Shown here piece after piece: positions 1 to 44,940 of a DNA stretch of 64,000 nt (position 1 is its first letter; each line of letters begins with the position of its first letter). Source of the DNA: a virus. The stretch covers positions 10,354 to 74,353 of the IMG/VR virus record IMGVR_UViG_3300027708_000057, one strand, 5' to 3'. Both the position numbers and the translations under genes were made by a program. Below the pieces are notes generated by a model. The model was not told the origin of the DNA. It saw only the letters and a program-made list of their open reading frames with translations, and made no database searches.

Positions 1-207
1 AATGGTGAAAAAGTTGAAGCTAAAGAATTAGTAGTTGGTAGTTCTCTTGCAACATATAATACTGAAGATACTAATAATCTTCATATAGTTGAAACTATTG
101 AGTTTGTTCCTAATAAGATTGATGTTGGTACTCTTACTATTGATGAACATCATGAACATCATGACTATCATAACTTCGCTTTAAGTTCTGGTATATTTGT
201 AATGAAT
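1..207 (+). mobile_element. C-terminal part of a mini-intein in the portal
   Basis: Translates NGEKVEAKELVVGSSL...DVGTLTIDEHHEHHDYHNFALSSGIFVMN, followed by Ser(+1) and resumption of gp20 sequence (SKGTEITTLPGG). Confidence 0.85.
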
Positions 208-882
208 TCCAAAGGTACAGAAATCACCACACTTCCCGGCGGAGAGAATCTTTCCGAAATTGCTGATATTAATTTTTTCCAAAAGAAGTTATATCGGTCT
301 CTTAATGTACCATCTGCTCGACTTGAAGCTGATTCATTATTTGTATCTGGTCGTTCATCGGAAATTTCAAGAGAGGAAGTAAAGTTTCAAAAGTTTATTT
401 CAAGACTTCGCAAAAAGTTTTCCATAATGTTTTCAGATATGTTGCGAGTACAGTGTATCCTTAAAGGGATTATCACTTTAAAAGATTGGCCAGCAATTCG
501 AGAATGTATGGGCGTTGACTTTATTGAAGATAATTTTTATTCCGAACTTAAAGATTCTGAGATTCTCAGAAATAGATTAGAAGTACTCGAATTGATTCAA
601 CCTAGTATAGGAATATATTATTCTAACAAATGGATTCGTTCAAATGTTCTGAATATGTCTGAGCATGATGTTATTCGTATGCAAGAAGAAATGGATGAAG
701 AGAAAGCAGCTGAAGAAAAAACTCCAACAGAAGAAGAACCTTCCAGCGAGGAAGAAAAATCTGTTCCAGAAGAAGAACCAGAAGCCGAAGTTCCTGCATC
801 TGAGGAAGAAGAACCATCTCCAGAAGGAGAAGAAGAGAAGCCTGGAAAAGAATGGTCAATTAATATGAATAAGAGAGCATAA
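1..882 (+). CDS. gp20: T4-like portal protein gp20, 3' part (5'-truncated, intein-containing)
   Basis: Frame 1 is open from base 1. gp20 motifs KGTEITTLPGGENL, FQKKLYRSLNVP and EISREEVKFQKFISRLR are present, followed by an acidic C-terminal tail. The gene precedes gp67/21/22/23. Confidence 0.95.
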   Translation, partial: NGEKVEAKELVVGSSLATYNTEDTNNLHIVETIEFVPNKIDVGTLTIDEHHEHHDYHNFALSSGIFVMNSKGTEITTLPGGENLSEIADINFFQKKLYRSLNVPSARLEADSLFVSGRSSEISREEVKFQKFISRLRKKFSIMFSDMLRVQCILKGIITLKDWPAIRECMGVDFIEDNFYSELKDSEILRNRLEVLELIQPSIGIYYSNKWIRSNVLNMSEHDVIRMQEEMDEEKAAEEKTPTEEEPSSEEEKSVPEEEPEAEVPASEEEEPSPEGEEEKPGKEWSINMNKRA

Positions 883-908
883 AATTCTAAATTATTTTAT
901 TTACAAAC

Positions 909-916
909 TATAAATA
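909..916 (+). promoter_or_regulatory. T4-type late promoter TATAAATA
   Basis: Exact consensus 5 nt upstream of ORF 922. The gp55 late sigma factor is encoded in the window. Confidence 0.8.
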
Positions 917-921
917 CAAAT

Positions 922-1341
922 ATGATTGAAAACTTTTTAAATAATCTTGCTTCTGATAATACAGAAAAGACGGATGCATCATTCAATAACCTTATTATGA
1001 CCAAGGTTAATACTGTTCTTGATATTAGTCGAATCGAGTTGACTTCTGATATCTTTAATAAGCAAAAGAGTGTGTCTGAATCTGCAGATGATGCTTATAA
1101 ATGTGCTCTTGCACAAGAACAATCTAATCCACGATTTGTAGAATCTCAAGATATTATTGCTCAAGGACTTACTCCTACTCAAGCTCAAGCGTTTGATAGT
1201 ATGATTTCTCAATGGGTTATTACTGGTGGAAATCTTCAACAACTACTTCGAAATTTCTATCAAAAACTTTTACTTTCCGGTAATAATATATCAAATCCTC
1301 GTATGCAAAAGGCTTTGGCATTTGTTCTCGATAAACTATAA
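922..1341 (+). CDS. gp67-like prohead core protein paralog 1 with C-terminal extension
   Basis: Lies between gp20 and gp21. Its ~47-aa N-terminal helical motif (NLIMTKVNTVLDISRIEL) is shared with the next two ORFs. Confidence 0.6.
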   Translation: MIENFLNNLASDNTEKTDASFNNLIMTKVNTVLDISRIELTSDIFNKQKSVSESADDAYKCALAQEQSNPRFVESQDIIAQGLTPTQAQAFDSMISQWVITGGNLQQLLRNFYQKLLLSGNNISNPRMQKALAFVLDKL

Positions 1342-1347
1342 AATCTT

Positions 1348-1776
1348 ATGATTAAAAAATTCATTAAACTTATATCGGAAGATAATAAATTTGCAAAAGA
1401 TGCAATGCTTACTAATATTATTATGACTAAAGTCAATACGGCCCTTGATATTAAACGGATTGAAATGGCTGTTAGTGTATATAATGAATCGATGGAGGAT
1501 GATATAGCTTTTGGTAAGCAAGAATTTCTAAAATTAAACCTTAAAGTGGGAGCTCATACTAATGTAGGCGATTTTATTAAGTCAGATGATGATGCTGCTT
1601 ATTTTATGAATGGTCCAAATAGGAAAACTATACCATTTGGAGCAAAAGTTATTGGTGGTAAATCTACTTTTTCTAATATCCGGGTATTAACTGATATAGA
1701 ATGGGAAGAAAAACAGCAAACTCATACAGATACAATGCAAGCTCATGTGAATAGAACTCCCAAACGTATTGACTAA
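1348..1776 (+). CDS. gp67-like prohead core protein paralog 2
   Basis: N-terminus NIIMTKVNTALDIKRIEM matches paralog 1. The C-terminal domain is unrelated. Confidence 0.6.
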   Translation: MIKKFIKLISEDNKFAKDAMLTNIIMTKVNTALDIKRIEMAVSVYNESMEDDIAFGKQEFLKLNLKVGAHTNVGDFIKSDDDAAYFMNGPNRKTIPFGAKVIGGKSTFSNIRVLTDIEWEEKQQTHTDTMQAHVNRTPKRID

Positions 1777-2759
1777 TGATAAAATCTTTCTTAAATTACA
1801 TAGCAGATGATAATACTGAATTGAGCAATTCAACTCTTCATAAATTAATTAGGAAGAAGGTGAATGAATCTATCTTAGATAAAAAAGTAGAATTATCTGT
1901 TGATATTTTAAATGAAAATCCGGTAACTGATAAAGTAAAAATATTAGGTAAAGCTGGACTATATCCAAAAGATGATGAACTTGATATATTACGCAGTATA
2001 AACATTATTTCTAACGGTGGAGACCTTTCAACCATTCAAAGAAAAAAGGCTTATAATCTTTTACTTAAACTTATTGAAATTGATACAAGTTCAGATCTTT
2101 TTATTAAGATAAAACAACATCTAGAAAATGATCAAGTTAAGTTAGGGGAGAATATAATGAGAAACGAATCTATTGAAAATCCATCCATAGTTGATACTAT
2201 TGAAAATGATTCAACAAAAAAGAAATCTAGTATAGATGCTATCTTTAAAAAATTAAGAGGCAAAGATTCTGAATTAACAATGCTTGATTATAACAGATTA
2301 CATGATTTATTTTATGATGGAGATGGATCTGATAAAAATTGGTCTGATACAAAGAAAAAATTAAAGGCTATCCTTGCTGATTATTCTGAAGATGAAGAGA
2401 TTCCAGATTTAATTCAATCTTTGACTGCTGCTATTAATAAAGGAGCTAAACTTGTAATATCTCCTGAAAAGGATAATGAAGATAAAATTACTCTTGTAAA
2501 TAAGCTTGGCAATAAACTTGAGATAATTAAAGAACTTGAAGGTAAACTTGAGCCATTAGATTATGAGGATGTGTATAACATATTCTTTAGAAATAAAGCT
2601 GATATGGAAGCCGGAAAAGAAATATTGATTAGGTTAATCGCGCAATATAAAGAAAATGAAGAGGCTACAACAGTATTAAATAAATTAGCTCCAATGTTAG
2701 GAATTAAATCTAAAGAATCTCCGGAAATTGCGCCTGAGGAAGATGAAGATGAGGAATAA
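1776..2759 (+). CDS. gp67-like paralog 3 with additional helical domains (probable prohead core/internal protein)
   Basis: N-terminus KLIRKKVNESILDKKVEL. Carries a domain shared with gp22, an internal repeat (LDYNRLHDLFY / LDYEDVYNIFF) and an acidic tail. Confidence 0.55.
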   Translation: MIKSFLNYIADDNTELSNSTLHKLIRKKVNESILDKKVELSVDILNENPVTDKVKILGKAGLYPKDDELDILRSINIISNGGDLSTIQRKKAYNLLLKLIEIDTSSDLFIKIKQHLENDQVKLGENIMRNESIENPSIVDTIENDSTKKKSSIDAIFKKLRGKDSELTMLDYNRLHDLFYDGDGSDKNWSDTKKKLKAILADYSEDEEIPDLIQSLTAAINKGAKLVISPEKDNEDKITLVNKLGNKLEIIKELEGKLEPLDYEDVYNIFFRNKADMEAGKEILIRLIAQYKENEEATTVLNKLAPMLGIKSKESPEIAPEEDEDEE

Positions 2760-2781
2760 ATGCAGAAAAACATGCTAAAAC

Positions 2782-2831
2782 TATAAATAGAATTGTAATA
2801 AGTGCTTGAAAATGAGCACAAAATATAAATA
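2782..2831 (+). promoter_or_regulatory. two tandem late promoters TATAAATA (2782-2789, 2824-2831)
   Basis: Exact consensus twice, directly upstream of gp21. Confidence 0.8.
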
Positions 2832-2836
2832 AACAC

Positions 2837-3499
2837 ATGCTTTTAATAACAGAAACTCTTGATTCTACTGTAAACCACATAACCGAAATGAATGGTTCTG
2901 GAGGTCAGAATCATTATATCACTGGCTGCTATATGCAGAGTGAGGTTGAGAATCGTAATAGACGCATTTATCCACGACAGATTCTTGAAAGAGCTGTTAC
3001 AAAATATATTGATGAATATGTAAGTAAAGGCCGGGCAATTTCTGAGTTGGCTCATCCGTCTGGGCCTGCTATTAATCTTGATAAAGTATCGCATCGAATT
3101 ACTGAACTCGCTTGGGTTGGTAATGATGTTATGGGTAAGGCTTTGATTCTTAATACTCCCATGGGTCTTATCGTAAAAGGTCTGCTTGATGGTGGTTGTA
3201 AGCTTGGTGTATCTTCTCGCGGATTGGGAACGGTTTCTTCTCGTAATGGTAAGACTTATGTTAATGATGATTATGCTCTTACAGCAATTGATATTGTTCA
3301 AGATCCATCGGCTCCTGCTGCATTTGTTAATGGTATAATGGAAATGACAGAATACTTCTATGACACCAATACAGATATTGTGGCAGAAACTTCTGAAAAA
3401 TATAAGAAGTTCATGAAAAATTTAAGTTCGCCTCAATTGGTTGAACAACAGACTAAATTGTTTGCTCAATTTTTAAATGAGATAAACATAAAACTTTAA
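2837..3499 (+). CDS. gp21: prohead protease gp21
   Basis: NRNRRIYP, ELAHP (His), LGVSSRGLG (Ser) and DIVQDPSAP motifs. Confidence 0.97.
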   Translation: MLLITETLDSTVNHITEMNGSGGQNHYITGCYMQSEVENRNRRIYPRQILERAVTKYIDEYVSKGRAISELAHPSGPAINLDKVSHRITELAWVGNDVMGKALILNTPMGLIVKGLLDGGCKLGVSSRGLGTVSSRNGKTYVNDDYALTAIDIVQDPSAPAAFVNGIMEMTEYFYDTNTDIVAETSEKYKKFMKNLSSPQLVEQQTKLFAQFLNEINIKL

Positions 3500-3627
3500 C
3501 TATGGAGACCAACGTTGTTGTGAAGTGAATATTGGTATGGAACTAGTGAAAATAAACATGAGACTGAAAGCTAAAGAAATTGTTCTTTAATTTCCTCTCC
3601 AACTCAAACAAACAAAAGTAATAAAAT

Positions 3628-5019
3628 ATGAAGCATAAAACAAATATTGAAGACGAGGATACCATTGAAGATATCTCCGAAAATACATTACTTTCTCTTG
3701 ATGAGCTTGCAGGAATTGCAAAGGCAATTGCGGAAGCCAAAGGTAAGAAGAAAGATGATAAAGATAGTGATGAGGAAATAGATGCAAAGCTTGGTCCTAA
3801 GGATGAAGCTAAAAAGTCTAAGTCTAAAAAGATTACATCTGACGAAGATGAAGATAATTCAGATGATGAAGATGATGAAGATGAAGAAAATTCAGATGAT
3901 GAAGATGAAGAAAATTCAGATGATGAAGATGATGAAGATGATGAAGATGACGAGAATTTAAATGAAGATGAAGAAAATTCAGATGATGAAGAAGAAGCTG
4001 AAAAAACTAAACAGTTGAAGCAAACTGGTTTGTTTAGTGATGCTGATATTAAGAAAGTCATTATTACCCTTAAACTAATTAAGGATGAGGAAGAAGTTAG
4101 CCAAGAACAAAAAGACTTGGTTGTTTCAGTATTTCTCAAATTAGTTGGTTTAGTTACTGGTGATGAAGATGTATTCGAAAAGCTTAAAAAAACTATAAAG
4201 AGTGCCGAAGAAAATTCAGAAAACAAGAAGTCTAAGAAAGAAGAATCCATCAAAGTTGATCATTCTGATATCACTCGTCTAGTTGAATCTGAAGAAGGTC
4301 TTACAGAAGAATTCAAGGAACGTGCTACTATTATTTTTGAAGCAGCAGTTCTTTCTAAGGTTTCTGAAATTAGATCTAATCTTGAAGAAGAATATGAAAC
4401 TCGTTTGAGTGAAGAAACTGAAACTATTAAAGATAATCTCATTGAAAAGATTGATAATTATCTCACTTATGCAGTTGAGGCTTGGGTAGAAGAAAACAAA
4501 GTCGCCATTGAATCAAGTTTGCGTACTGAAATTGCAGAGAACTTCATTACTTCTTTAAAATCTGTATTCGTCGAACATTATATTGAAGTGCCTGAAAGTA
4601 AGGTTGATCTGTTTGCTAATCTAGAAGCAGAAGTAATCAAGCTTAAAAAAGATGTACGTGAAGCTGAACGAATTTCTGAATCCTTAGCCGCCGGAGTAAT
4701 CACTCTGACCCGCGAAAAGATTATGCAGGAATCATTCTCTGATCTTGCTGATACACAGGTAGAAAAACTAAAGTCACTTGTCGAAGACGTTGAGTTTGTT
4801 AATGCATCTTCTTACAAAAAGAAGATTGATACAATTAAGAAATTCTATATTACCGGATTAGATAATGACACAGAAACATTGCACGAAGACTACGATGATA
4901 ATGCATATGTTAGTACTGAAACCATTGTAGAAAATGAAACCATGGATGAAGATTACGTATCTCCAATCATGTCAAGATATTTAACCGCTATCTCACGTTC
5001 AGCTAAGGCTGCAAGCTAA
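3628..5019 (+). CDS. gp22: prohead scaffold protein gp22 with long acidic N-terminal extension
   Basis: EEFKERATIIFEAAV, IDNYLTYAVEAWVEENKVAIE, FVEHYIEVP and C-terminal MSRYLTAISR. Lies between gp21 and gp23. Confidence 0.95.
   Translation: MKHKTNIEDEDTIEDISENTLLSLDELAGIAKAIAEAKGKKKDDKDSDEEIDAKLGPKDEAKKSKSKKITSDEDEDNSDDEDDEDEENSDDEDEENSDDEDDEDDEDDENLNEDEENSDDEEEAEKTKQLKQTGLFSDADIKKVIITLKLIKDEEEVSQEQKDLVVSVFLKLVGLVTGDEDVFEKLKKTIKSAEENSENKKSKKEESIKVDHSDITRLVESEEGLTEEFKERATIIFEAAVLSKVSEIRSNLEEEYETRLSEETETIKDNLIEKIDNYLTYAVEAWVEENKVAIESSLRTEIAENFITSLKSVFVEHYIEVPESKVDLFANLEAEVIKLKKDVREAERISESLAAGVITLTREKIMQESFSDLADTQVEKLKSLVEDVEFVNASSYKKKIDTIKKFYITGLDNDTETLHEDYDDNAYVSTETIVENETMDEDYVSPIMSRYLTAISRSAKAAS
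3840..3995 (+). repeat. low-complexity Asp/Glu tandem repeat (EDEENSDD) in gp22
   Basis: Repeated gaagatgaagaaaattcagatgat and gatgaagat units. Confidence 0.85.
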
Positions 5020-5077: not shown

Positions 5078-6493
5078 ATGTTCAACTCAGAACAACTCGA
5101 AAAGAAGTGGGCTCCTGTACTAGAAACTCGTGATGCTCCAAAGTTCAAGGATAACTATCGTCGTGCTATCACTGCGGTTCTCCTAGAAAATCAAGAAAAG
5201 GCGATGCATGAAGAAAATTCGGCATCTAATTTCCTCAACGAAAGTAATACTATCGGTGGTTCAGCTATCGGTGGTGGTACTGGTGCAGTTAAGACTTGGG
5301 ACCCTGTCCTTATTAGTCTTGTGCGTCGCGCAATGCCAAACATTGTTGCGTATGATATTGCTGGCGTTCAGCCAATGACCATGCCTACTGGCTTGATCTT
5401 TGCTATGCGTTCTCAATACCAAGATAAAGACGGTGCTAATACAGTTGAAGCATTGTATAACACTCCTGATACTAGTTTCTCTGGTGATGACCAAGTTGGT
5501 GGCCGTCAAGGTCTTACTACTGCTATTGGTGAAACTCTATCTGGCAACTCAGCTTCTAATACAACAACATGGGTCGATCCAAATGCTGCTAATGGATATC
5601 GTACAGATGGTGGTACTGCTGCAACATATAACCTCGGTCAAACTAATGGTGCTAGCGGCGGCGCTGCTGGTGGTTTCGGTCAAATGGGTTTCACTGTCGA
5701 TAAAACAACTGTTACTGCTAAGACTCGCGCCCTTAAGGCTGAGTACACAATGGAATTGGCCCAAGACCTTAAGGCCGTTCACGGTCTTGATGCTGAAGCT
5801 GAACTTGCTAACATCCTATCGGTTGAAATCCTTGCAGAAATTAATCGCGAAGTACTTAGCACTGTTAATGCCAAAGCAAAGCTTGGTGGTATTATCTCCA
5901 ATGGAACTCCTTCTGGCTACTTCGATATCAATGAAGATGCAGATGGTCGCTGGGCCGTTGAAAAATTCAAGTCATTAATCTATCAGATTGAGCTTGAAGC
6001 TAATGCAGTCGCCAAAGCAACACGTAGAGGGAAAGGTAACATTGTTATCTGTTCATCTAATGTAGCCTCAGCACTTGCTGCCGCTGGTGTTATGGACTAT
6101 GCTCCTGCTATGTCAACCAACTTGAATGTTGATGATACTGGTAATGTATTCACAGGTATGATCAATGGTCGTCTCAAGGTGTTCATTGACCCATATGCTG
6201 ATACTGATTATATCAATGTTGGTTATCGTGGTTCTAATGCATATGATGCAGGTATCTTTTACTGCCCATATGTCCCTCTAACCATGGTGCGTGCCGTCAA
6301 TCCTGAAACCTTTCAACCAAAGATCGGCTTTAAGACACGTTATGGTCTTGTTGCCAATCCTTTCGCTGGTGGTGCAGCTTCAACTGAAACTGGTGCTAAT
6401 CGCGCCAACCCTTACTTCCGTATCTTCGGAGTAACTGGTCTTGGTCAAGGTTCTGATATTCCTACTGGCCGTAGTAACAAATACGGTTACTAA
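5078..6493 (+). CDS. gp23: major capsid protein gp23
   Basis: WDPVLISLVRRAMP, GVQPMTMPTGLIFAMR, KTRALKAEYTMELAQDLKAVHGLDAE, FYCPYVPL and FQPKIGFKTRYG. Confidence 0.99.
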   Translation: MFNSEQLEKKWAPVLETRDAPKFKDNYRRAITAVLLENQEKAMHEENSASNFLNESNTIGGSAIGGGTGAVKTWDPVLISLVRRAMPNIVAYDIAGVQPMTMPTGLIFAMRSQYQDKDGANTVEALYNTPDTSFSGDDQVGGRQGLTTAIGETLSGNSASNTTTWVDPNAANGYRTDGGTAATYNLGQTNGASGGAAGGFGQMGFTVDKTTVTAKTRALKAEYTMELAQDLKAVHGLDAEAELANILSVEILAEINREVLSTVNAKAKLGGIISNGTPSGYFDINEDADGRWAVEKFKSLIYQIELEANAVAKATRRGKGNIVICSSNVASALAAAGVMDYAPAMSTNLNVDDTGNVFTGMINGRLKVFIDPYADTDYINVGYRGSNAYDAGIFYCPYVPLTMVRAVNPETFQPKIGFKTRYGLVANPFAGGAASTETGANRANPYFRIFGVTGLGQGSDIPTGRSNKYGY

Positions 6494-6545
6494 GCTAATT
6501 AGTAACAGATTATATTTCTAAAGTATAATCTGATTACGAAAATTC

Positions 6546-6582
6546 AAAGGGTCTCCTGTAAAAAGGAGATCCTTTTTTGTTT
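6546..6582 (+). terminator. rho-independent terminator after gp23
   Basis: aaagggtctcc-tgtaaaaa-ggagatccttt stem followed by a T run. Confidence 0.85.
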
Positions 6583-6676
6583 TATAATATCGGAAATTCA
6601 TATAGGTTAATTCTATGAGGAATTGGAAGATAATCAAGTTTAGATGTGCAATCAAGAAATTCGTTCCAATATACAT

Positions 6677-6716
6677 GAGCTTATAGTTACAATTTTTAAT
6701 AAAAATTGTAACTATT
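6677..6716 (+). mobile_element. collapsed remnant of the tnpB-element right end (perfect palindrome)
   Basis: gagcttatagt...aataaaaattgtaactat matches the 3' ends of both tnpB copies. It forms the inverted repeat atagttacaattttt-aat-aaaaattgtaactat. Confidence 0.6.
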
Positions 6717-6782
6717 CATATATGATGTTCTTATGTTTTATTCATTATAGAGCAAAGAATAATTTAATAAAGACTTATCATA

Positions 6783-6790
6783 TATAAATA
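6783..6790 (+). promoter_or_regulatory. late promoter TATAAATA
   Basis: Exact consensus 7 nt upstream of ORF 6798. Confidence 0.8.
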
Positions 6791-6797
6791 ATACCAT

Positions 6798-8651
6798 ATG
6801 ATATCATTTCGCCAATTTATTTCCGAAGATGTAGCTTCTCAAGAACGTCAAGCTCTTAACATTCTTAATAGAAACCATATTAAAGATCCTGAAGACGTTT
6901 TTAATGATCTTAAAGCTATTACCGAACCATATCAGGCCGGTGATAATATAACAAGACCTGCAAGAAATCAAGCTCATCTTCCTAAACTTGCTGAATTTCT
7001 TTCGAAAGGAAAAATTAAGATTAACACTTTAAAGGCCTATTATGATAGGTATATTAAGAATCCAAAATTAAATAAGACGGCAATAGTTAACTTTAAAGAC
7101 TTTAGAGAGTTTGAACAATTTGTTGATGAAAATGAGGTAGTTAAGATGTCAGATCATGATTCTAGAAATAATAAAATTTCCGAAAAGAATGCTATCTATC
7201 ATGATAGCGAAATAGATGTTTATCTTGGAGACACCAAGCAAGCCTGTATGCTTTATGGGCAAGGATCTAAGTTTAATTTATGTATTTCCAGAAATGATTC
7301 TAGTAATCTATTTCATGATTATAGATGGAAACATGAACTTACTACTTACTTTGTATACTTTAAAGAAGCCGGGGTTAATAATCCTAATTTTATTATCGTA
7401 GATGCTTCTAAAAAATCTCCTAAAACGTTTAGCTATAATATAATCAAACCTAATTCTGATAAAAATATATCAAAGGAAAATCTTATTACGAAATTCCCGC
7501 AATTAAAAACCGCAATGGAAAAGGGTATCTTTAAACATAAGAAAATTGAAGGAGATGAAAAGAAATATTATATAAAATATCATGGTAAATCTATTACAGA
7601 TTTTTCAACTCTAGATGATAGAATTAACTTTATTGAAATGGGGGAAGAAATTGAAGGTAATCAATGGTCTAAATTAGGAGATATGGTTCCTAAACTGTTA
7701 CCTTATTATATTGAAATCGGACATGATATTCCAAAGGAAGTACTTGATAAGAATACATCTTTTAAAAAACGATATGAACAAAAGTTACAACAAAGAGTTC
7801 AAATGAATCTTGATGATAATACTGATCTTGATGATTATACAAAAGATGAACTAGAATATGCTTTAAGAAATAATGATAGGGTAAAAGATAAGATAAAGCA
7901 GATAAGCAAACTAGAAGAACTTAAAATAAGAAACGAACTAGTTAATGGGATATATAAAGGAGATATAAGAATTAAATCTAAATATATATTACCAAATCTA
8001 TCTGATATTGTAGTTAGTGGAGATTTTTATTGTCCTTATAATAAACTTACATCTTTAGAAGGAGCTCCTAAAGAAGTTGGTGGAGATTTTAATTGTTCTA
8101 GTAATAAACTTACATCTTTAGAAGGAGCTCCTAAAGAAGTTGGTGGAGATTTTTATTGTGATAATAATAACCTTACATCTTTAGAAGGAGCTCCTAAAGA
8201 AGTTGGTGGAGATTTTTATTGTTCTAGTAATAAACTTACATCTTTAGAAGGGGGTCCAAAAGAAGTTGGTGGATATTTTAATTGTGATAATAATAACCTT
8301 ACATCTTTAGAAGGGGGTCCAAAAGAAGTTGGTGGATATTTTAATTGTTCTGATAATAAACTTACTTCTTTAGAAGGATCTCCGCAAAAAGTTGGTGGAT
8401 ATTTTAATTGTTCTGATAATAAACTTACTTCTTTAGAAGGATCTCCGCAAAAAGTTGGTGGATATTTTAATTGTTCTGATAATAAACTTACATCTTTAGA
8501 AGGAGCTCCTAAAGAAGTTGGTGGAGATTTTAATTGTTCTGATAATAAACTTACATCTTTAGAAGGAGCTCCTAAAGAAGTTGGTAGAGATTTTTATTGT
8601 TCTAATAATCTAGTCAAATTAGACTATAAAGCATGGTTGACAAAACAATAA
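6798..8651 (+). CDS. late protein with C-terminal leucine-rich-repeat array; possibly head-packaged
   Basis: Nine 21-aa repeats GxFxCxxNxLTSLEGxPxxVG plus a cap. N-terminus MISFRQFISE resembles the T4 capsid-targeting sequence. Confidence 0.8.
   Translation: MISFRQFISEDVASQERQALNILNRNHIKDPEDVFNDLKAITEPYQAGDNITRPARNQAHLPKLAEFLSKGKIKINTLKAYYDRYIKNPKLNKTAIVNFKDFREFEQFVDENEVVKMSDHDSRNNKISEKNAIYHDSEIDVYLGDTKQACMLYGQGSKFNLCISRNDSSNLFHDYRWKHELTTYFVYFKEAGVNNPNFIIVDASKKSPKTFSYNIIKPNSDKNISKENLITKFPQLKTAMEKGIFKHKKIEGDEKKYYIKYHGKSITDFSTLDDRINFIEMGEEIEGNQWSKLGDMVPKLLPYYIEIGHDIPKEVLDKNTSFKKRYEQKLQQRVQMNLDDNTDLDDYTKDELEYALRNNDRVKDKIKQISKLEELKIRNELVNGIYKGDIRIKSKYILPNLSDIVVSGDFYCPYNKLTSLEGAPKEVGGDFNCSSNKLTSLEGAPKEVGGDFYCDNNNLTSLEGAPKEVGGDFYCSSNKLTSLEGGPKEVGGYFNCDNNNLTSLEGGPKEVGGYFNCSDNKLTSLEGSPQKVGGYFNCSDNKLTSLEGSPQKVGGYFNCSDNKLTSLEGAPKEVGGDFNCSDNKLTSLEGAPKEVGRDFYCSNNLVKLDYKAWLTKQ
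8019..8585 (+). repeat. 9 x 63-bp coding tandem repeat (LRR copy 1)
   Basis: Unit gga-NNt-ttt-Nat-tgt-NNt-NNt-aat-aaM-ctt-acW-tct-tta-gaa-gg...gtt-ggt. Confidence 0.97.
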
Positions 8652-41916: not shown

Positions 41917-42919
41917 TTAACAAAAGAAATCACTAAGATCAGATAATGGTATAGCCTTCCAGTTAATTGCGTCCAAAATTAATTGTAATGGGGAGATAAA
42001 TGTCTTTTCGAATAATAAATCTCTATCTACATATTTGTCAAGATCAAATTCTGTTGGAAGTTTATCAAGGAACGCAATTACGTTTTCTCCTGTAGGATTG
42101 CCTTTACGAAGGAAGATATATTTAATACGATCACCTCCTTTAATATATTGGTGCTTGTTTGTCAATCCCATAGTTTTTATTAAGTGATTATACATGATAG
42201 ATGCCCTACTATTCATAGGGGTTCCTTTGATATATGGAACTTTAATTCCATTTGCTCCTACCTTTTGAATATATTTTTTAATATTAGTAAGACCACGAGG
42301 AAATGCAATCTTTTCAATTGGTTCTTGTTCAAACTCTTCTCGAAATCGTTCCACCTCTGTCTGAATTTCCAATTCAGATGCTGCCATAAGAAGTTTAAAT
42401 AACTTTTTAAATTCAGTTCGACAAATCTTAGGTGTTGAAGATTTAATAGCCTCAATACCTTTCATAACAAGTTTAGGTTCTTTATAGACTACCCCTTCAC
42501 TTGAAATTACATTGAATATGTATCTTTTTTTCGCTTGGATAATTCCAACAGAACAAATTTTTTCTGTTTTCATAACCATAGTGTTCTTATATGTATTAAC
42601 TTTCAAAGCTAATTCAGAATATGCTTTTTCAATAACAGGTTCTAAAGCACTTCTTCCAAAATCTAAAAGAAATTGATGAGGATCTCTTGGCTTGCATTTA
42701 TCAACGACATCTCCGAGATGAGTGGCAATTGAATCAGTGTCGGACATAAGGATTCGATCATTAAAAGTAGAATCTTTTAATGAGGTTGATAAGAAATTAT
42801 TTACGGCATGTTCAGCTGTTTGTACTGCTAATTGACCAGATAACGTAATAGCTTCTGCAATGTCAATATTATAATATCGGAAAAACCTATTTGAAAATGC
42901 TCCATAGCAGGAATTTAAT
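41917..42919 (-). CDS. gp43B: DNA polymerase gp43B, exon 2
   Basis: Frame is open from 42918: LNSCYGAFSNRFFRYY...AEAITLSGQ...DTDS (motif C), KKRY, KGIEAIKSSTP and C-terminal clamp-binding LSDFF. Confidence 0.92.
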
Positions 42920-43164
42920 CATTTATGTTAAGTATGATTCGTTAATTTCATACTCAGTATTACTACTGCTTATAGTTTCCTATAAGATCAGACTATATCT
43001 TCAACTCAGAGAGTTGTCATGCGCTTCCACTCACTTGAGTGTACTCCTTACGGATAGTCGTTGCACCTTCTATTTCTAGCTTGGCTCAGGATTAGCATAT
43101 TAAAGCCTTCCCTGAATTCACATGAAGTTTACCTCTATATTGCTATAGAGGGTCCCATTAGTTT
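42920..43164 (-). ncRNA. group I intron (245 nt, no ORF) in gp43B motif B
   Basis: Exon ends in U and intron ends in G. P1 UCCU/GGGA, P10 UAAU/AUUA, P2 CCUCUAUA-GCAA-UAUAGAGG, P GAAUUCAGGGAA, Q AAUCCUGAGC, R GUGCAACGACUA, S AAGAUAUAGUC. Splicing restores KILLNSCYG. Confidence 0.93.
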
Positions 43165-43244
43165 AGGATTTTAAGACCCATTTGTTCATTATTAAGTCGA
43201 TCAATTTCAATTTCCAATTCTCTTTTTCTTTTTTCTATATTCAT
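43165..43244 (-). CDS. gp43B: DNA polymerase gp43B, exon 1
   Basis: MNIEKRKRELEIEIDRLNNEQMGLKI(L), the second fingers helix leading into motif B. Confidence 0.88.
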
Positions 43245-43446
43245 ATTATTTTGTTTACGTTTTTCAAAATGATACCTGGTCATATTGCTAACTTTACTAT
43301 GACAGTCGCAATGGGGACTTATCATTAACTTTAAATTTCTAGGATTATGCAGATACGGTGTGGTTTTTTAATATGATTTAGAGACATATCTGGGCATAAT
43401 ATGATGCTTTTATAAAAACACATCATACTAAATTCTCTATATGGGA
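43245..43446 (-). pseudogene. relic of an HNH (Mob-like) homing endonuclease
   Basis: One frame reads *KHHIMPRYVSKSY*KTTPYLHNPRNLKLMISPHCDCHSKVSNMTRYHFEKRK: an HHIxP..N..NL HNH start fused to a CPHC..M.RYHF tail. Confidence 0.7.
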
Positions 43447-44940
43447 TTATTTTAACAATTCTAATTCTTTCTGAGCTTCAATCATTCGTCTCTTTACAAG
43501 AACTCTATTCATATAGATATCTTCCATAAGAGCTCCAAGAAACCCCTGTTTATCTCGTTTAAAGCAACAACCATTTGCTGCTATTGCTAAGTTTTCCTCA
43601 GGAGACCATTGTTTTCTATCAATATTTTCTAATATCTTTTCTGGTGTAATTCCCGGAACTTTCATATGAGGTACAATAGTTTCTGGGCTCATATTATATT
43701 GAATGATAGTATTTGGATATAGACTATTTAAATCATATGTCATTACCCAATCAAACCGGCCTTTGTGAGCTTCTTTAACATAACCTCCTTCATATTCAGT
43801 TTTAAAAGAAACTTCATTTTGAGGAATTGCAATACGTTTATTAGCAAGATATCTAAAGATAATAGCATCCCAAATTGCAACAGTTCCTAATGTATCATTA
43901 TAATTAGTACCTGCATAATATGATAAAGTAAATACTAGATTGATTGTTCCTAGCTTTTCTTCAAGCTTTGTAATAAGTTCAATATCGACGAGATTGTATG
44001 AACAGTAGAAATCATAATCCTTTTCATATAGTTCAGTAAGATTTGAATAGCCAGATTCTCCATAATTAATCTTACCTTCTCCAAGGACGAGATCGGCAAT
44101 AAAATCTAGCTTGTGTGACTCTTGTTTACCGTAAGTATTTAAACTGAATTTAATAAATAAATCAAGATAATCTAATTGTTGAACTCCACTGATATCAAAG
44201 AATGTACAGTCCTTGCCAGTTTTATCTATCTTAGTTCTTTGAGAAATATTATTCCATGGAGATAATCTTTTAGCTTCATCTGATCCTAAAACTCTTGATA
44301 ATCGATTGATTAAATATGGAACATCATATAATTTTGTATTCCATCCAGTAATTACATCAGGTGTATTCATGGGGTCAGACCACCATGTAATAAAATCTGA
44401 TAACATTTCGTGTTCAGAATCAAATTCTCTACGCTCAAGATTAATATGAGGAACTAGAGACTTGTCTTGATCGAAATGTTTTGTCCCCCACTGAATATAA
44501 TGAGAATGAGTAGATGCTTTCAAACCGATGAGAGTAATTTCTTGATCGGCAACTGTAGACTCCGTAAATTCTCCCGTAGAAGAAACCATATTTTCTATAT
44601 CTAGGAAGCAAATCTCAATTCTGCTTGACTTAAATTGAATCTTATCTGGAAACTTTTCTTGAATATATGATATGATATGCCGATCATTTCCATAAATCTT
44701 AAAAGACTTGATATCTTCATAAGTCTTTTGAAAGTTTCTACAATCACTCATTGACTCAAATTTCATTTCTTCAACTGGTGTACCTTCAAGTGTATGCCAA
44801 AGAGTATCTGAACTTTTTGCTTCGAGATACATTGTAGGCTTATACTTGATTTTATTGTAAATCTTTCGTCCATCTGCATCATATCCTCTATAGAGAATAT
44901 TATTCATATGGCGGTCAACACAAGTGTAAAATTCAATCAT
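43447..44940 (-). CDS. gp43A: DNA polymerase gp43A (exonuclease, motif A, first fingers helix)
   Basis: FLDIE, GWNTKLYDVPY, YNLVD, YEGGYV and DLNSLYPNTI. Stops after RRMIEAQKELELLK. Confidence 0.95.
   Translation of the reverse strand: MIEFYTCVDRHMNNILYRGYDADGRKIYNKIKYKPTMYLEAKSSDTLWHTLEGTPVEEMKFESMSDCRNFQKTYEDIKSFKIYGNDRHIISYIQEKFPDKIQFKSSRIEICFLDIENMVSSTGEFTESTVADQEITLIGLKASTHSHYIQWGTKHFDQDKSLVPHINLERREFDSEHEMLSDFITWWSDPMNTPDVITGWNTKLYDVPYLINRLSRVLGSDEAKRLSPWNNISQRTKIDKTGKDCTFFDISGVQQLDYLDLFIKFSLNTYGKQESHKLDFIADLVLGEGKINYGESGYSNLTELYEKDYDFYCSYNLVDIELITKLEEKLGTINLVFTLSYYAGTNYNDTLGTVAIWDAIIFRYLANKRIAIPQNEVSFKTEYEGGYVKEAHKGRFDWVMTYDLNSLYPNTIIQYNMSPETIVPHMKVPGITPEKILENIDRKQWSPEENLAIAANGCCFKRDKQGFLGALMEDIYMNRVLVKRRMIEAQKELELLK

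Follow-up and report, generated by a model that had tools for sequence, protein, structure and literature searches.

[quoted passage not shown] The intron itself, at 43164..42920, is confirmed: its membership of a known RNA family, the restoration of an open reading frame by its excision, the conservation and covariation of its helices and its patchy distribution at a single site were all computed here. The window is part of an IMG/VR record of 74,353 bases (~41% complete by CheckV) and derives from an uncultured freshwater phage showing ~40-45% protein identity to cultured T4-like phages. The polymerase gene and the intron both lie on the minus strand (Table 1).

Table 1. Coordinates of gene 43 and of the intron elements within the window.
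Feature	Position	Strand	Description
Gene 43A	43447..44940	(-)	497 aa; N-terminal part, exonuclease and first half of palm/fingers (ORF list)
Intercistronic gap	43245..43446	(-)	202 nt; stops in all frames
Gene 43B exon 1	43165..43244	(-)	80 nt; MNIEKRKRELEIEIDRLNNEQMGLKI plus CU of the Leu codon
Gene 43B exon 2	41917..42919	(-)	(L)LNSCYGAF..., via motif C (SDTDS) and thumb to the stop codon
Group I intron	42920..43164	(-)	245 nt, no ORF; phage IA2-like with P7.1/P7.2; A43164 first, G42920 last
Internal guide 5′-UAAUGGGA-3′	43153..43160	(-)	GGGA for P1, UAAU for P10
P2	43132..43151	(-)	8 bp, GCAA tetraloop (read from the sequence)
Rival P1 strand GGGUCU	43174..43179	(-)	In exon 1; pairs with GGACCC (43155-43150)
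3′ peripheral hairpins	42931..42968	(-)	Past the Rfam match; P9.1, P9.2, then tail UAACAUAAAUG (MFE fold)

The T4-type family B polymerase (PolB) gene 43, the one PolB found in the record, consists of three coding pieces, namely 43A and the two exons of 43B. The 43A product, which has Pfam matches to DNA_pol_B_exo1 and DNA_pol_B and is 43% identical to residues 5-450 of the gp43 of Synechococcus phage S-T4, ends with ...AQKELELLK just past the first fingers helix (stop codon TAA, 43449-43447). Following the gap, we place the start of 43B at the ATG at 43244, which reads MNIEKRKRELEIEIDR..., because of its alignment with unsplit relatives (ITDKKTKRHSELLIEIDR... and ...AQKELEITDKKTKRHSELLIEIDR...) and because of the equivalent ATG in a related contig, Ga0114951_10006485 (L154; MNNIEKRKRELEIE); the ATG given by the ORF finder, at 43325, falls inside the gap. 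The second exon matches Pfam DNA_pol_B and is 45% identical to residues 457-805 of S-T4 gp43. The polymerase is hence split at the tip of the fingers by the stop codon ending at 43447, the gap and the ATG at 43244. The 43A coding region ends at the same point in eight more distant relatives, the split gene occurs in three of the 80 best IMG/VR relatives, and natural finger-tip splits of gp43 are among those described in PMC3061061. For annotation, the intron and the split together explain gene calls of 497 aa and 276 aa, both labeled as polymerase, with the 80-nt exon missed.

A cmscan search matched the region 43183..42969 of the minus strand to the group I family RF00028 over the full model (positions 1-253) with 96.3 bits (E 1.3e-23; gathering score 50 bits), the sole Rfam match in the window and the single match of its kind in the record. 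The intron boundaries are canonical, the 5′ exon ending in U and the intron in G: exon 1 closes with ...AAA AUC CU (U at 43165) and exon 2 opens with A UUA AAU UCC at 42919. Once the exons are joined (...NEQMGLKILLNSCYGAF... / ...NEQMGLKILLNSCYGAFSNRFFRYYN...), the CU/A junction restores the frame exactly to the base as K-I-L-L-N-S-C-Y-G, and the product aligns without a gap to S-T4 gp43 (...NIQMAKKISLNSAYGAIGNQYFRYYK..., KISLNSAYG) at 45% identity over 356 residues. The closest IMG/VR relatives, L007 and L008 (82% identical in exon 2), read uninterrupted through the site (...NEQMGIKILLNSCYGAL...), and a continuous KILLNSCYGA is encoded in 22 IMG/VR contigs; we regard all of these as natural intron-minus alleles. 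Such comparisons support the junction AAAATCCT/ATTAAATTCC as the only one that would restore a polymerase collinear with its homologues. Excision and the junction at KIL^LNS are in our view well-supported predictions, and the transcript is presumably spliced there. If it were left unspliced, the RNA would read CUA AAC UAA (KILN-stop), with an in-frame UAA at 43160-43158, that is, at nucleotides 5-7 of the intron, and the ORF finder accordingly lists a 55-aa ORF with this ending; complete gp43B thus requires splicing. These results bear out much of a preliminary description of the window, which had placed an ORF-less group I intron of 245 nt at exactly 42920-43164 (leaving its strand, the minus strand, unstated), had named Infernal with group I models as a means of checking it, and had read both the split Leu codon of K-I-L-L-N-S-C-Y-G and the stop two codons past it in unspliced RNA. 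Its further claim that replication must depend on splicing agrees with the fact that the only PolB found in the record needs splicing to unite the invariant motif B lysine with the rest of the enzyme.

The catalytic core of the intron is complete. The P, Q, R and S elements (AAUUCAGGGAAGG, AAUCCUGAGCCAAGC, GUGCAACGACUAU and AAGAUAUAGUCU) all align to the Rfam consensus, and the pairs of the core (P3-P4-P6 and P7-P8-P9) are kept with compensatory changes in related introns. The insert after GACUA folds into P7.1 and P7.2 (UCC-GUAA-GGA and CACUC-AAGU-GAGUG), as expected for subgroup IA; both helices are kept by compensatory changes in L154, in a second contig with an intron at this site (L080) and in the introns of T-even phages, and, together with a homologous intron of Aeromonas phage 25 annotated as group IA2, they point to a phage IA2-like element. 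Past the Rfam match, the peripheral hairpins P9.1 (42968-42955, with a GUAA loop) and P9.2 (42954-42931) show compensatory changes in L080, and this 3′ region has a UUAACGA motif in common with the gp43 introns of T-even phages and phage 25. The MFE z-score of the intron is -4.06. RNAalifold returned 67 pairs, 18 of them compensatory, for three introns at the same site, and 46 consensus pairs, 20 of them compensatory, for five related introns that included those of T-even phages and of Pseudoalteromonas phage pYD6-A. Compensatory pair changes across lineages are strong evidence that the RNA has been selected for its fold.

From family membership, covariation and precedent we infer that the intron is catalytic, that it is spliced in vivo and that it came by homing. 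The intron interrupts K-I-L^L-N-S-C-Y-G between the second and third bases of the Leu codon. Within the guide, GGGA can pair with UCCU of exon 1 (43168-43165) to form a P1 of 4 bp (-2.7 kcal/mol) that includes the wobble U43165.G43156, and UAAU (43160-43157) can pair with AUUA of exon 2 (42919-42916) to form a P10 that adjoins P1 on the guide; with the ligated exons, UCCU/AUUA, the guide forms 8 continuous bp at -8.6 kcal/mol. In this manner the guide would hold four bases on either side of the exon junction, exogenous guanosine would attack after U43165, and the terminal G42920 would direct exon ligation to give AAAAUCCU joined to AUUAAAUUCC and, with it, complete gp43B. In L154 and L080, the sequence of the P2 helix is wholly different, and yet it still comprises 8 bp with a GNRA loop. 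The wobble in P1, P10, P2 and the P/Q and R/S elements had been called all intact in the preliminary description; all of them are indeed present, but P1 is weak at only 4 bp and is rivaled by a helix upstream.

Introns at the same site were sought by means of a junction pattern and a survey of the 80 IMG/VR relatives. Homologous introns occupy the identical CU/A position in L154 (245 nt, 92% identical) and in two IMG/VR contigs, L080/L185 and L186 (254 nt, 70% identical); identity to the 43A of the window is 74% for L154 and 56% for L080. All of these introns begin with AAACUAAU and finish with ...UUAACAUAAUG (...UUAACAU(A)AAUG). P1 is kept in all three lineages, with 3 bp in L080, and P10 is kept as AUUG/UAAU in L154, with a G.U pair, and as AAU/AUU in L080, by compensation. 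The sequences of P2, P7.1, P7.2, P8, P9 and P9.1 differ among them, while pairing and GNRA loops are retained. Scans of IMG/VR with 43A peptide patterns and with the intron-specific 17-mer AAACTAATGGGACCCTC produced no matches, and Rfam detected no group I intron in nine contigs in which LNSCYG lacks a preceding K-x-x. A scan of metagenomes with the junction 19-mer AARATCCTAAACTAATKGG produced 36 matches, among which a polymerase intron was found only in L154; the other 35 are taken to be due to chance since they have no polymerase context. Separately, ~40 nt of the intron (AAGAUAUAGUC core, 42964-43006) are matched on their own, with unlike flanks, by many unrelated contigs in four metagenome runs. 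IA-type introns akin to this one seem to be plentiful in these freshwater communities.

The 43A-43B gap of 202 nt is apparently what an internal deletion has left of a free-standing gene for an HNH-type homing endonuclease, the homology to endonucleases being confined to a short tail of ~30 residues; what the window retains at this position is a relic of ~30 codons rather than an intact endonuclease. The frame that survives in it, ...NPRNLKLMISPHCDCHSKVSNMTRYHFEKRKQNN, continues into the 43B ATG, so that gp43B would be 27 residues longer if translation began at the ATG at 43325. The tail can be aligned to the C-terminal end of a frameshifted HNH-like ORF located between 43A and 43B in L154 (KPRNLKLVICPYCECQGKGGNMTRYHFEHCKENK; NPRNLKLMISPHCDCHSKVSNMTRYHFEK vs KPRNLKLVICPYCECQGKGGNMTRYHFEHC), and also with the Seg-type HEG tails found between 43A and 43B in phage 25 and in phage G2285, such that a tail module PHC/PYC...NMTRYHF is common to HNH-type (L154) and GIY-YIG Seg-type (phage 25, G2285) genes at the same gene position. 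The Pfam HNH match of the L154 ORF is weak (E 0.03-0.05), and its assignment rests on the visible motif ENHHIIP...REHYIAH. Other lineages carry other free-standing endonucleases between 43A and 43B: DUF559/Vsr-like in L080 and L081, and HNH with NUMOD3 in L133. No similarity was found between the gap of the window and the DUF559/Vsr-like ORFs of L080 and L081 or an ORF of L007 that is described below. L081 (IMGVR_UViG_3300042458_002038, positions 6016-6830), which is close to L080, has the split and a 249-aa DUF559/Vsr-like ORF but no intron (continuous ...TEQMCLKILLNSLYG...), so the endonuclease can occur without the intron.

A contig from a 2025 aquatic metagenome (run X5) skips 154 nt of the gap (43274-43427) and contains 5 additional nt between 43249 and 43248. 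Arranged by state, the sequences suggest a series of decay that leads from an intact endonuclease gene (L133) through a frameshifted one (L154) and the 202-nt relic of the window to the ~53 nt left in X5. We also observe that, if the 43A frame of X5 is open past the stop codon used in the window, it would end at a TGA overlapping the 43B ATG (ATGA).

Patterns of divergence speak to how the intron was acquired. Aligned with L154, 43A and exon 2 of the window reach 79.6% and 75.2% identity, respectively, as opposed to 91% for exon 1 and 92% for the intron. Relative to X5, 3 of 304 nt differ over the 5′ part of the intron and exon 1 (~99% identical), as opposed to 149 of 928 nt over 43A (~84% identical), with the caveat that Logan contigs such as X5 can be chimeric. 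Both the split and the intron are missing from the relatives whose proteins are most similar, P0004 (73%) and L007 (70%). All of this fits co-conversion and the lateral spread of a cassette in which the intron is accompanied by exon 1 and an endonuclease gene, although structural constraint, rather than recent transfer, might account for part of the higher identity seen in the intron. Having no mobility gene of its own, the intron would most likely have moved by homing in trans (“collaborative” homing), as has been proposed for Aeromonas phage 25, along with the exon 1 of 80 nt and a free-standing endonuclease gene that lay between 43A and 43B. Since only a 202-nt relic of the endonuclease gene is left here, the intron has probably lost its mobility.

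The most unusual detail of the locus is the helix that competes with P1, whose use might delete the catalytic lysine in frame. In the Rfam alignment, GGGUCU(UA) (43179-43172) is paired with (UG)GGACCC (43157-43150), which makes U43174, 9 nt upstream of U43165, the consensus splice-site U; at -9.4 kcal/mol, this helix is 6.7 kcal/mol stronger than the 4-bp P1. One could therefore suppose that the ribozyme mainly or substantially uses U43174.G43155, in which case the mRNA would be 9 nt shorter, with its frame preserved, and loss of K-I-L would amount to mis-splicing that reduces the amount of active polymerase or produces an inactive form. For the T4 td intron, Chandry and Belfort are said to have described, back in 1987, just such cryptic upstream 5′ splice sites reached via alternative P1 pairing. 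Nevertheless, we regard this as quite unlikely. The product would be devoid of a lysine that is found in every homologue examined, and P10 would be impossible at this site because A+1 would face G43156. C43151 and C43150 of the rival helix are needed for the 8-bp P2. Neither is the helix a conserved element, since it is absent in L154 (GGGGCU) and in L080 (nothing comparable), both of which keep UCCU/GGGA and P10; in L080, the Rfam model itself sets the splice-site U at KIL^. Reading of the sequence, furthermore, revealed no alternative 3′ splice site with an open frame that would rescue the upstream 5′ site. GGGUCU/GGACCC was thus rejected as the functional P1 on account of the missing P10, the loss of the invariant lysine and the lack of conservation in L154 and L080, and we retain it as a plausible cryptic 5′ splice site, in this phage only. 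With its two competing helices, the locus is a simple natural system in which to test how a 5′ splice site is chosen; splicing at U43165 is predicted to give the 18-nt junction AAAATCCTATTAAATTCC.

Further alternatives concern the nature of the element as such. Although the neighboring endonuclease is clearly decayed, the gene is in three pieces and P1 is short, it is very improbable that we are looking at a decayed, non-splicing relic in a polymerase pseudogene of a defective or dependent phage, given that the core is preserved in all its elements, with a score of 96 bits, that the helices change by compensation and not randomly across lineages, that all three coding pieces are open and conserved, and that the identical sequence occurs in four freshwater-metagenome runs, with a near-identical intron in the 2025 sample. 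Hardly credible is an assembly artefact in the form of a chimeric join with the intron of another phage. The core of 35-40 nt (42964-43006) present in many unrelated contigs of the same runs could indeed mislead an assembler, but a 756-nt contig from an independent sample (run X4) covers 42973-43728, from the 5′ part of the intron through exon 1 and the gap into the end of 43A, with 0 differences, which excludes a one-off misassembly; in addition, a homologous intron with a matching guide interrupts the same codon position in three contigs assembled from other samples, and excision is exact to the base. A more far-reaching view would see motif B as a hot spot for one IA2-like lineage, with two sites 23 nt apart (see below), colonized by a cassette of endonuclease gene, micro-exon and intron in which the endonuclease was swapped among HNH, DUF559/Vsr-like and GIY-YIG types, and in which the stronger P1 adds a dead gp43B deleted for K-I-L. 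If this were true, splice-site choice would modulate polymerase output; as a whole, however, we deem it unlikely.

Introns in gene 43 have been known since 2010. The fourth group I intron of the T4 family resides in gene 43 of Aeromonas phage 25 (25.g43B); it is HEG-less and predicted to use a free-standing endonuclease (PMC2993671). According to two reviews (PMC2993671, PMC2988022), this 43B intron, the subject of Petrov, Ratnayaka and Karam (2010, J Mol Biol 395:457), is self-splicing. Phage 25 also has a split 43A/43B with an intercistronic untranslated sequence and the GIY-YIG gene seg43(25) (PMC2988022, PMC2677866), and another putative gene 43 intron is reported for Escherichia phage JSE (PMC2993671). 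In our alignments, the gp43 introns of phage 25 (NC_008208), PSD2002 and G2285 are all inserted at YGAL^GN, 23 nt downstream of the site in the window, and the gp43 of JSE is interrupted in motif A (SFDLTSL^...), ~130 codons upstream of motif B. With the known introns lying at YGAL^GN or in motif A, KIL^LNS becomes the third documented insertion site in gene 43, directly after the catalytic lysine codon by our account. The preliminary description had regarded phage polymerase introns as best known in family A, thereby passing over the T4-type family B introns of phage 25, JSE, G2285 and PSD2002, and had spoken of an unusual site in a gp43-type family B polymerase; the exact site does differ from the known ones, but gene 43 was already an established host. 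Overall identity between the intron of the window and the known gp43 introns is 59-65%, and they have the core, P7.1/P7.2 and the 3′ motif UUAACGA in common.

Phage 25 provides the closest parallel in arrangement, for it likewise has a T4-type PolB split at the fingers tip, an endonuclease gene in the place of the relic, a short 43B exon and an ORF-less intron, which belongs to the same sequence family as that of the window (59% identity overall); the relic tail of the window, moreover, resembles the tail of seg43(25). The two differ in the insertion site (KIL^LNS, phase 2, in the window, and YGAL^GN, phase 1, in phage 25), in intron length (245 nt vs 347 nt) and in the endonuclease, which is GIY-YIG in phage 25 as against HNH type in the lineage of the window (now a relic) and DUF559/Vsr-like in L080. 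That the closest relatives of the window are unsplit suggests an independent acquisition. The introns of the T-even E. coli phages vB_EcoM_G2285 (MK327933) and PSD2002 (OK335775) are also ORF-less, IA2-like and located in the motif B region, and they are 63-65% identical to ours over the whole intron, yet they sit at YGAL^GN and not at KIL^LNS; G2285 has a GIY-YIG ORF upstream inside the gene. JSE likewise has a group I intron in a T4-type PolB, but at its motif A site and with a truncated endonuclease gene reported in the intron. [quoted passage not shown]

Among cultured phages, the closest intron by sequence is that in the DNA polymerase I gene of phage pYD6-A (JF974296), with 75% identity over intron nucleotides 20-208 and 80% over the core; unlike in the window, the host gene encodes a family A polymerase of an N4-like podovirus, and P1 and P10 are unrelated. 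In the same phage (L003), a CDS for a 230-aa “hypothetical protein” (2237-2929) stops exactly where the Rfam intron match within the joined DNA polymerase I CDS begins, and may represent another endonuclease, encoded either immediately before a related intron or in that intron's 5′ portion. Collaborative homing, in which a free-standing endonuclease mobilises an HEG-less intron, has been described for cyanophage psbA (Zeng, Bonocora and Shub 2009; Bonocora and Shub 2009), as summarized in PMC2993671 and PMC2988022. The window shares with that case an HEG-less intron with an endonuclease gene, or its relic, shortly upstream; it differs in that the endonuclease is no longer intact, and homing here is putative.

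Taken together, we argue that a composite arrangement like that of phage 25 is found again in uncultured aquatic phages only distantly related to it, where it involves other endonuclease families and every stage of decay. We look upon KIL^LNS as a new insertion site of an ordinary mobile element in a gene already known as a host, and the current understanding of group I introns and of homing is unchanged by it.

Polymerase genes of the relatives display other oddities. In L007 (IMGVR_UViG_3300009684_000092, 140-4319), and also in L008 and L026, motif B is unsplit and intronless and the polymerase is broken at motif C instead. The first ORF of L007 ends with ...SDTDS/VTGDTIIS..., which looks like the N-part of an intein, the third reads ...NNICVHN/SVMIGLSDVIDK, which looks like a C-part, and between these polymerase pieces lies a free ORF of 374 aa with a weak match to REase_MTES_1575. 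The arrangement looks like the “fractured gene” split inteins of Dassa et al. 2009 (PMC2677866). In L086 (IMGVR_UViG_3300006805_000549, ~5816), the PolB ORF stops early (...KVIMTGDEI*) and the tblastn match to 43B continues to the end of 43B, which may reflect a frameshift or another insertion.
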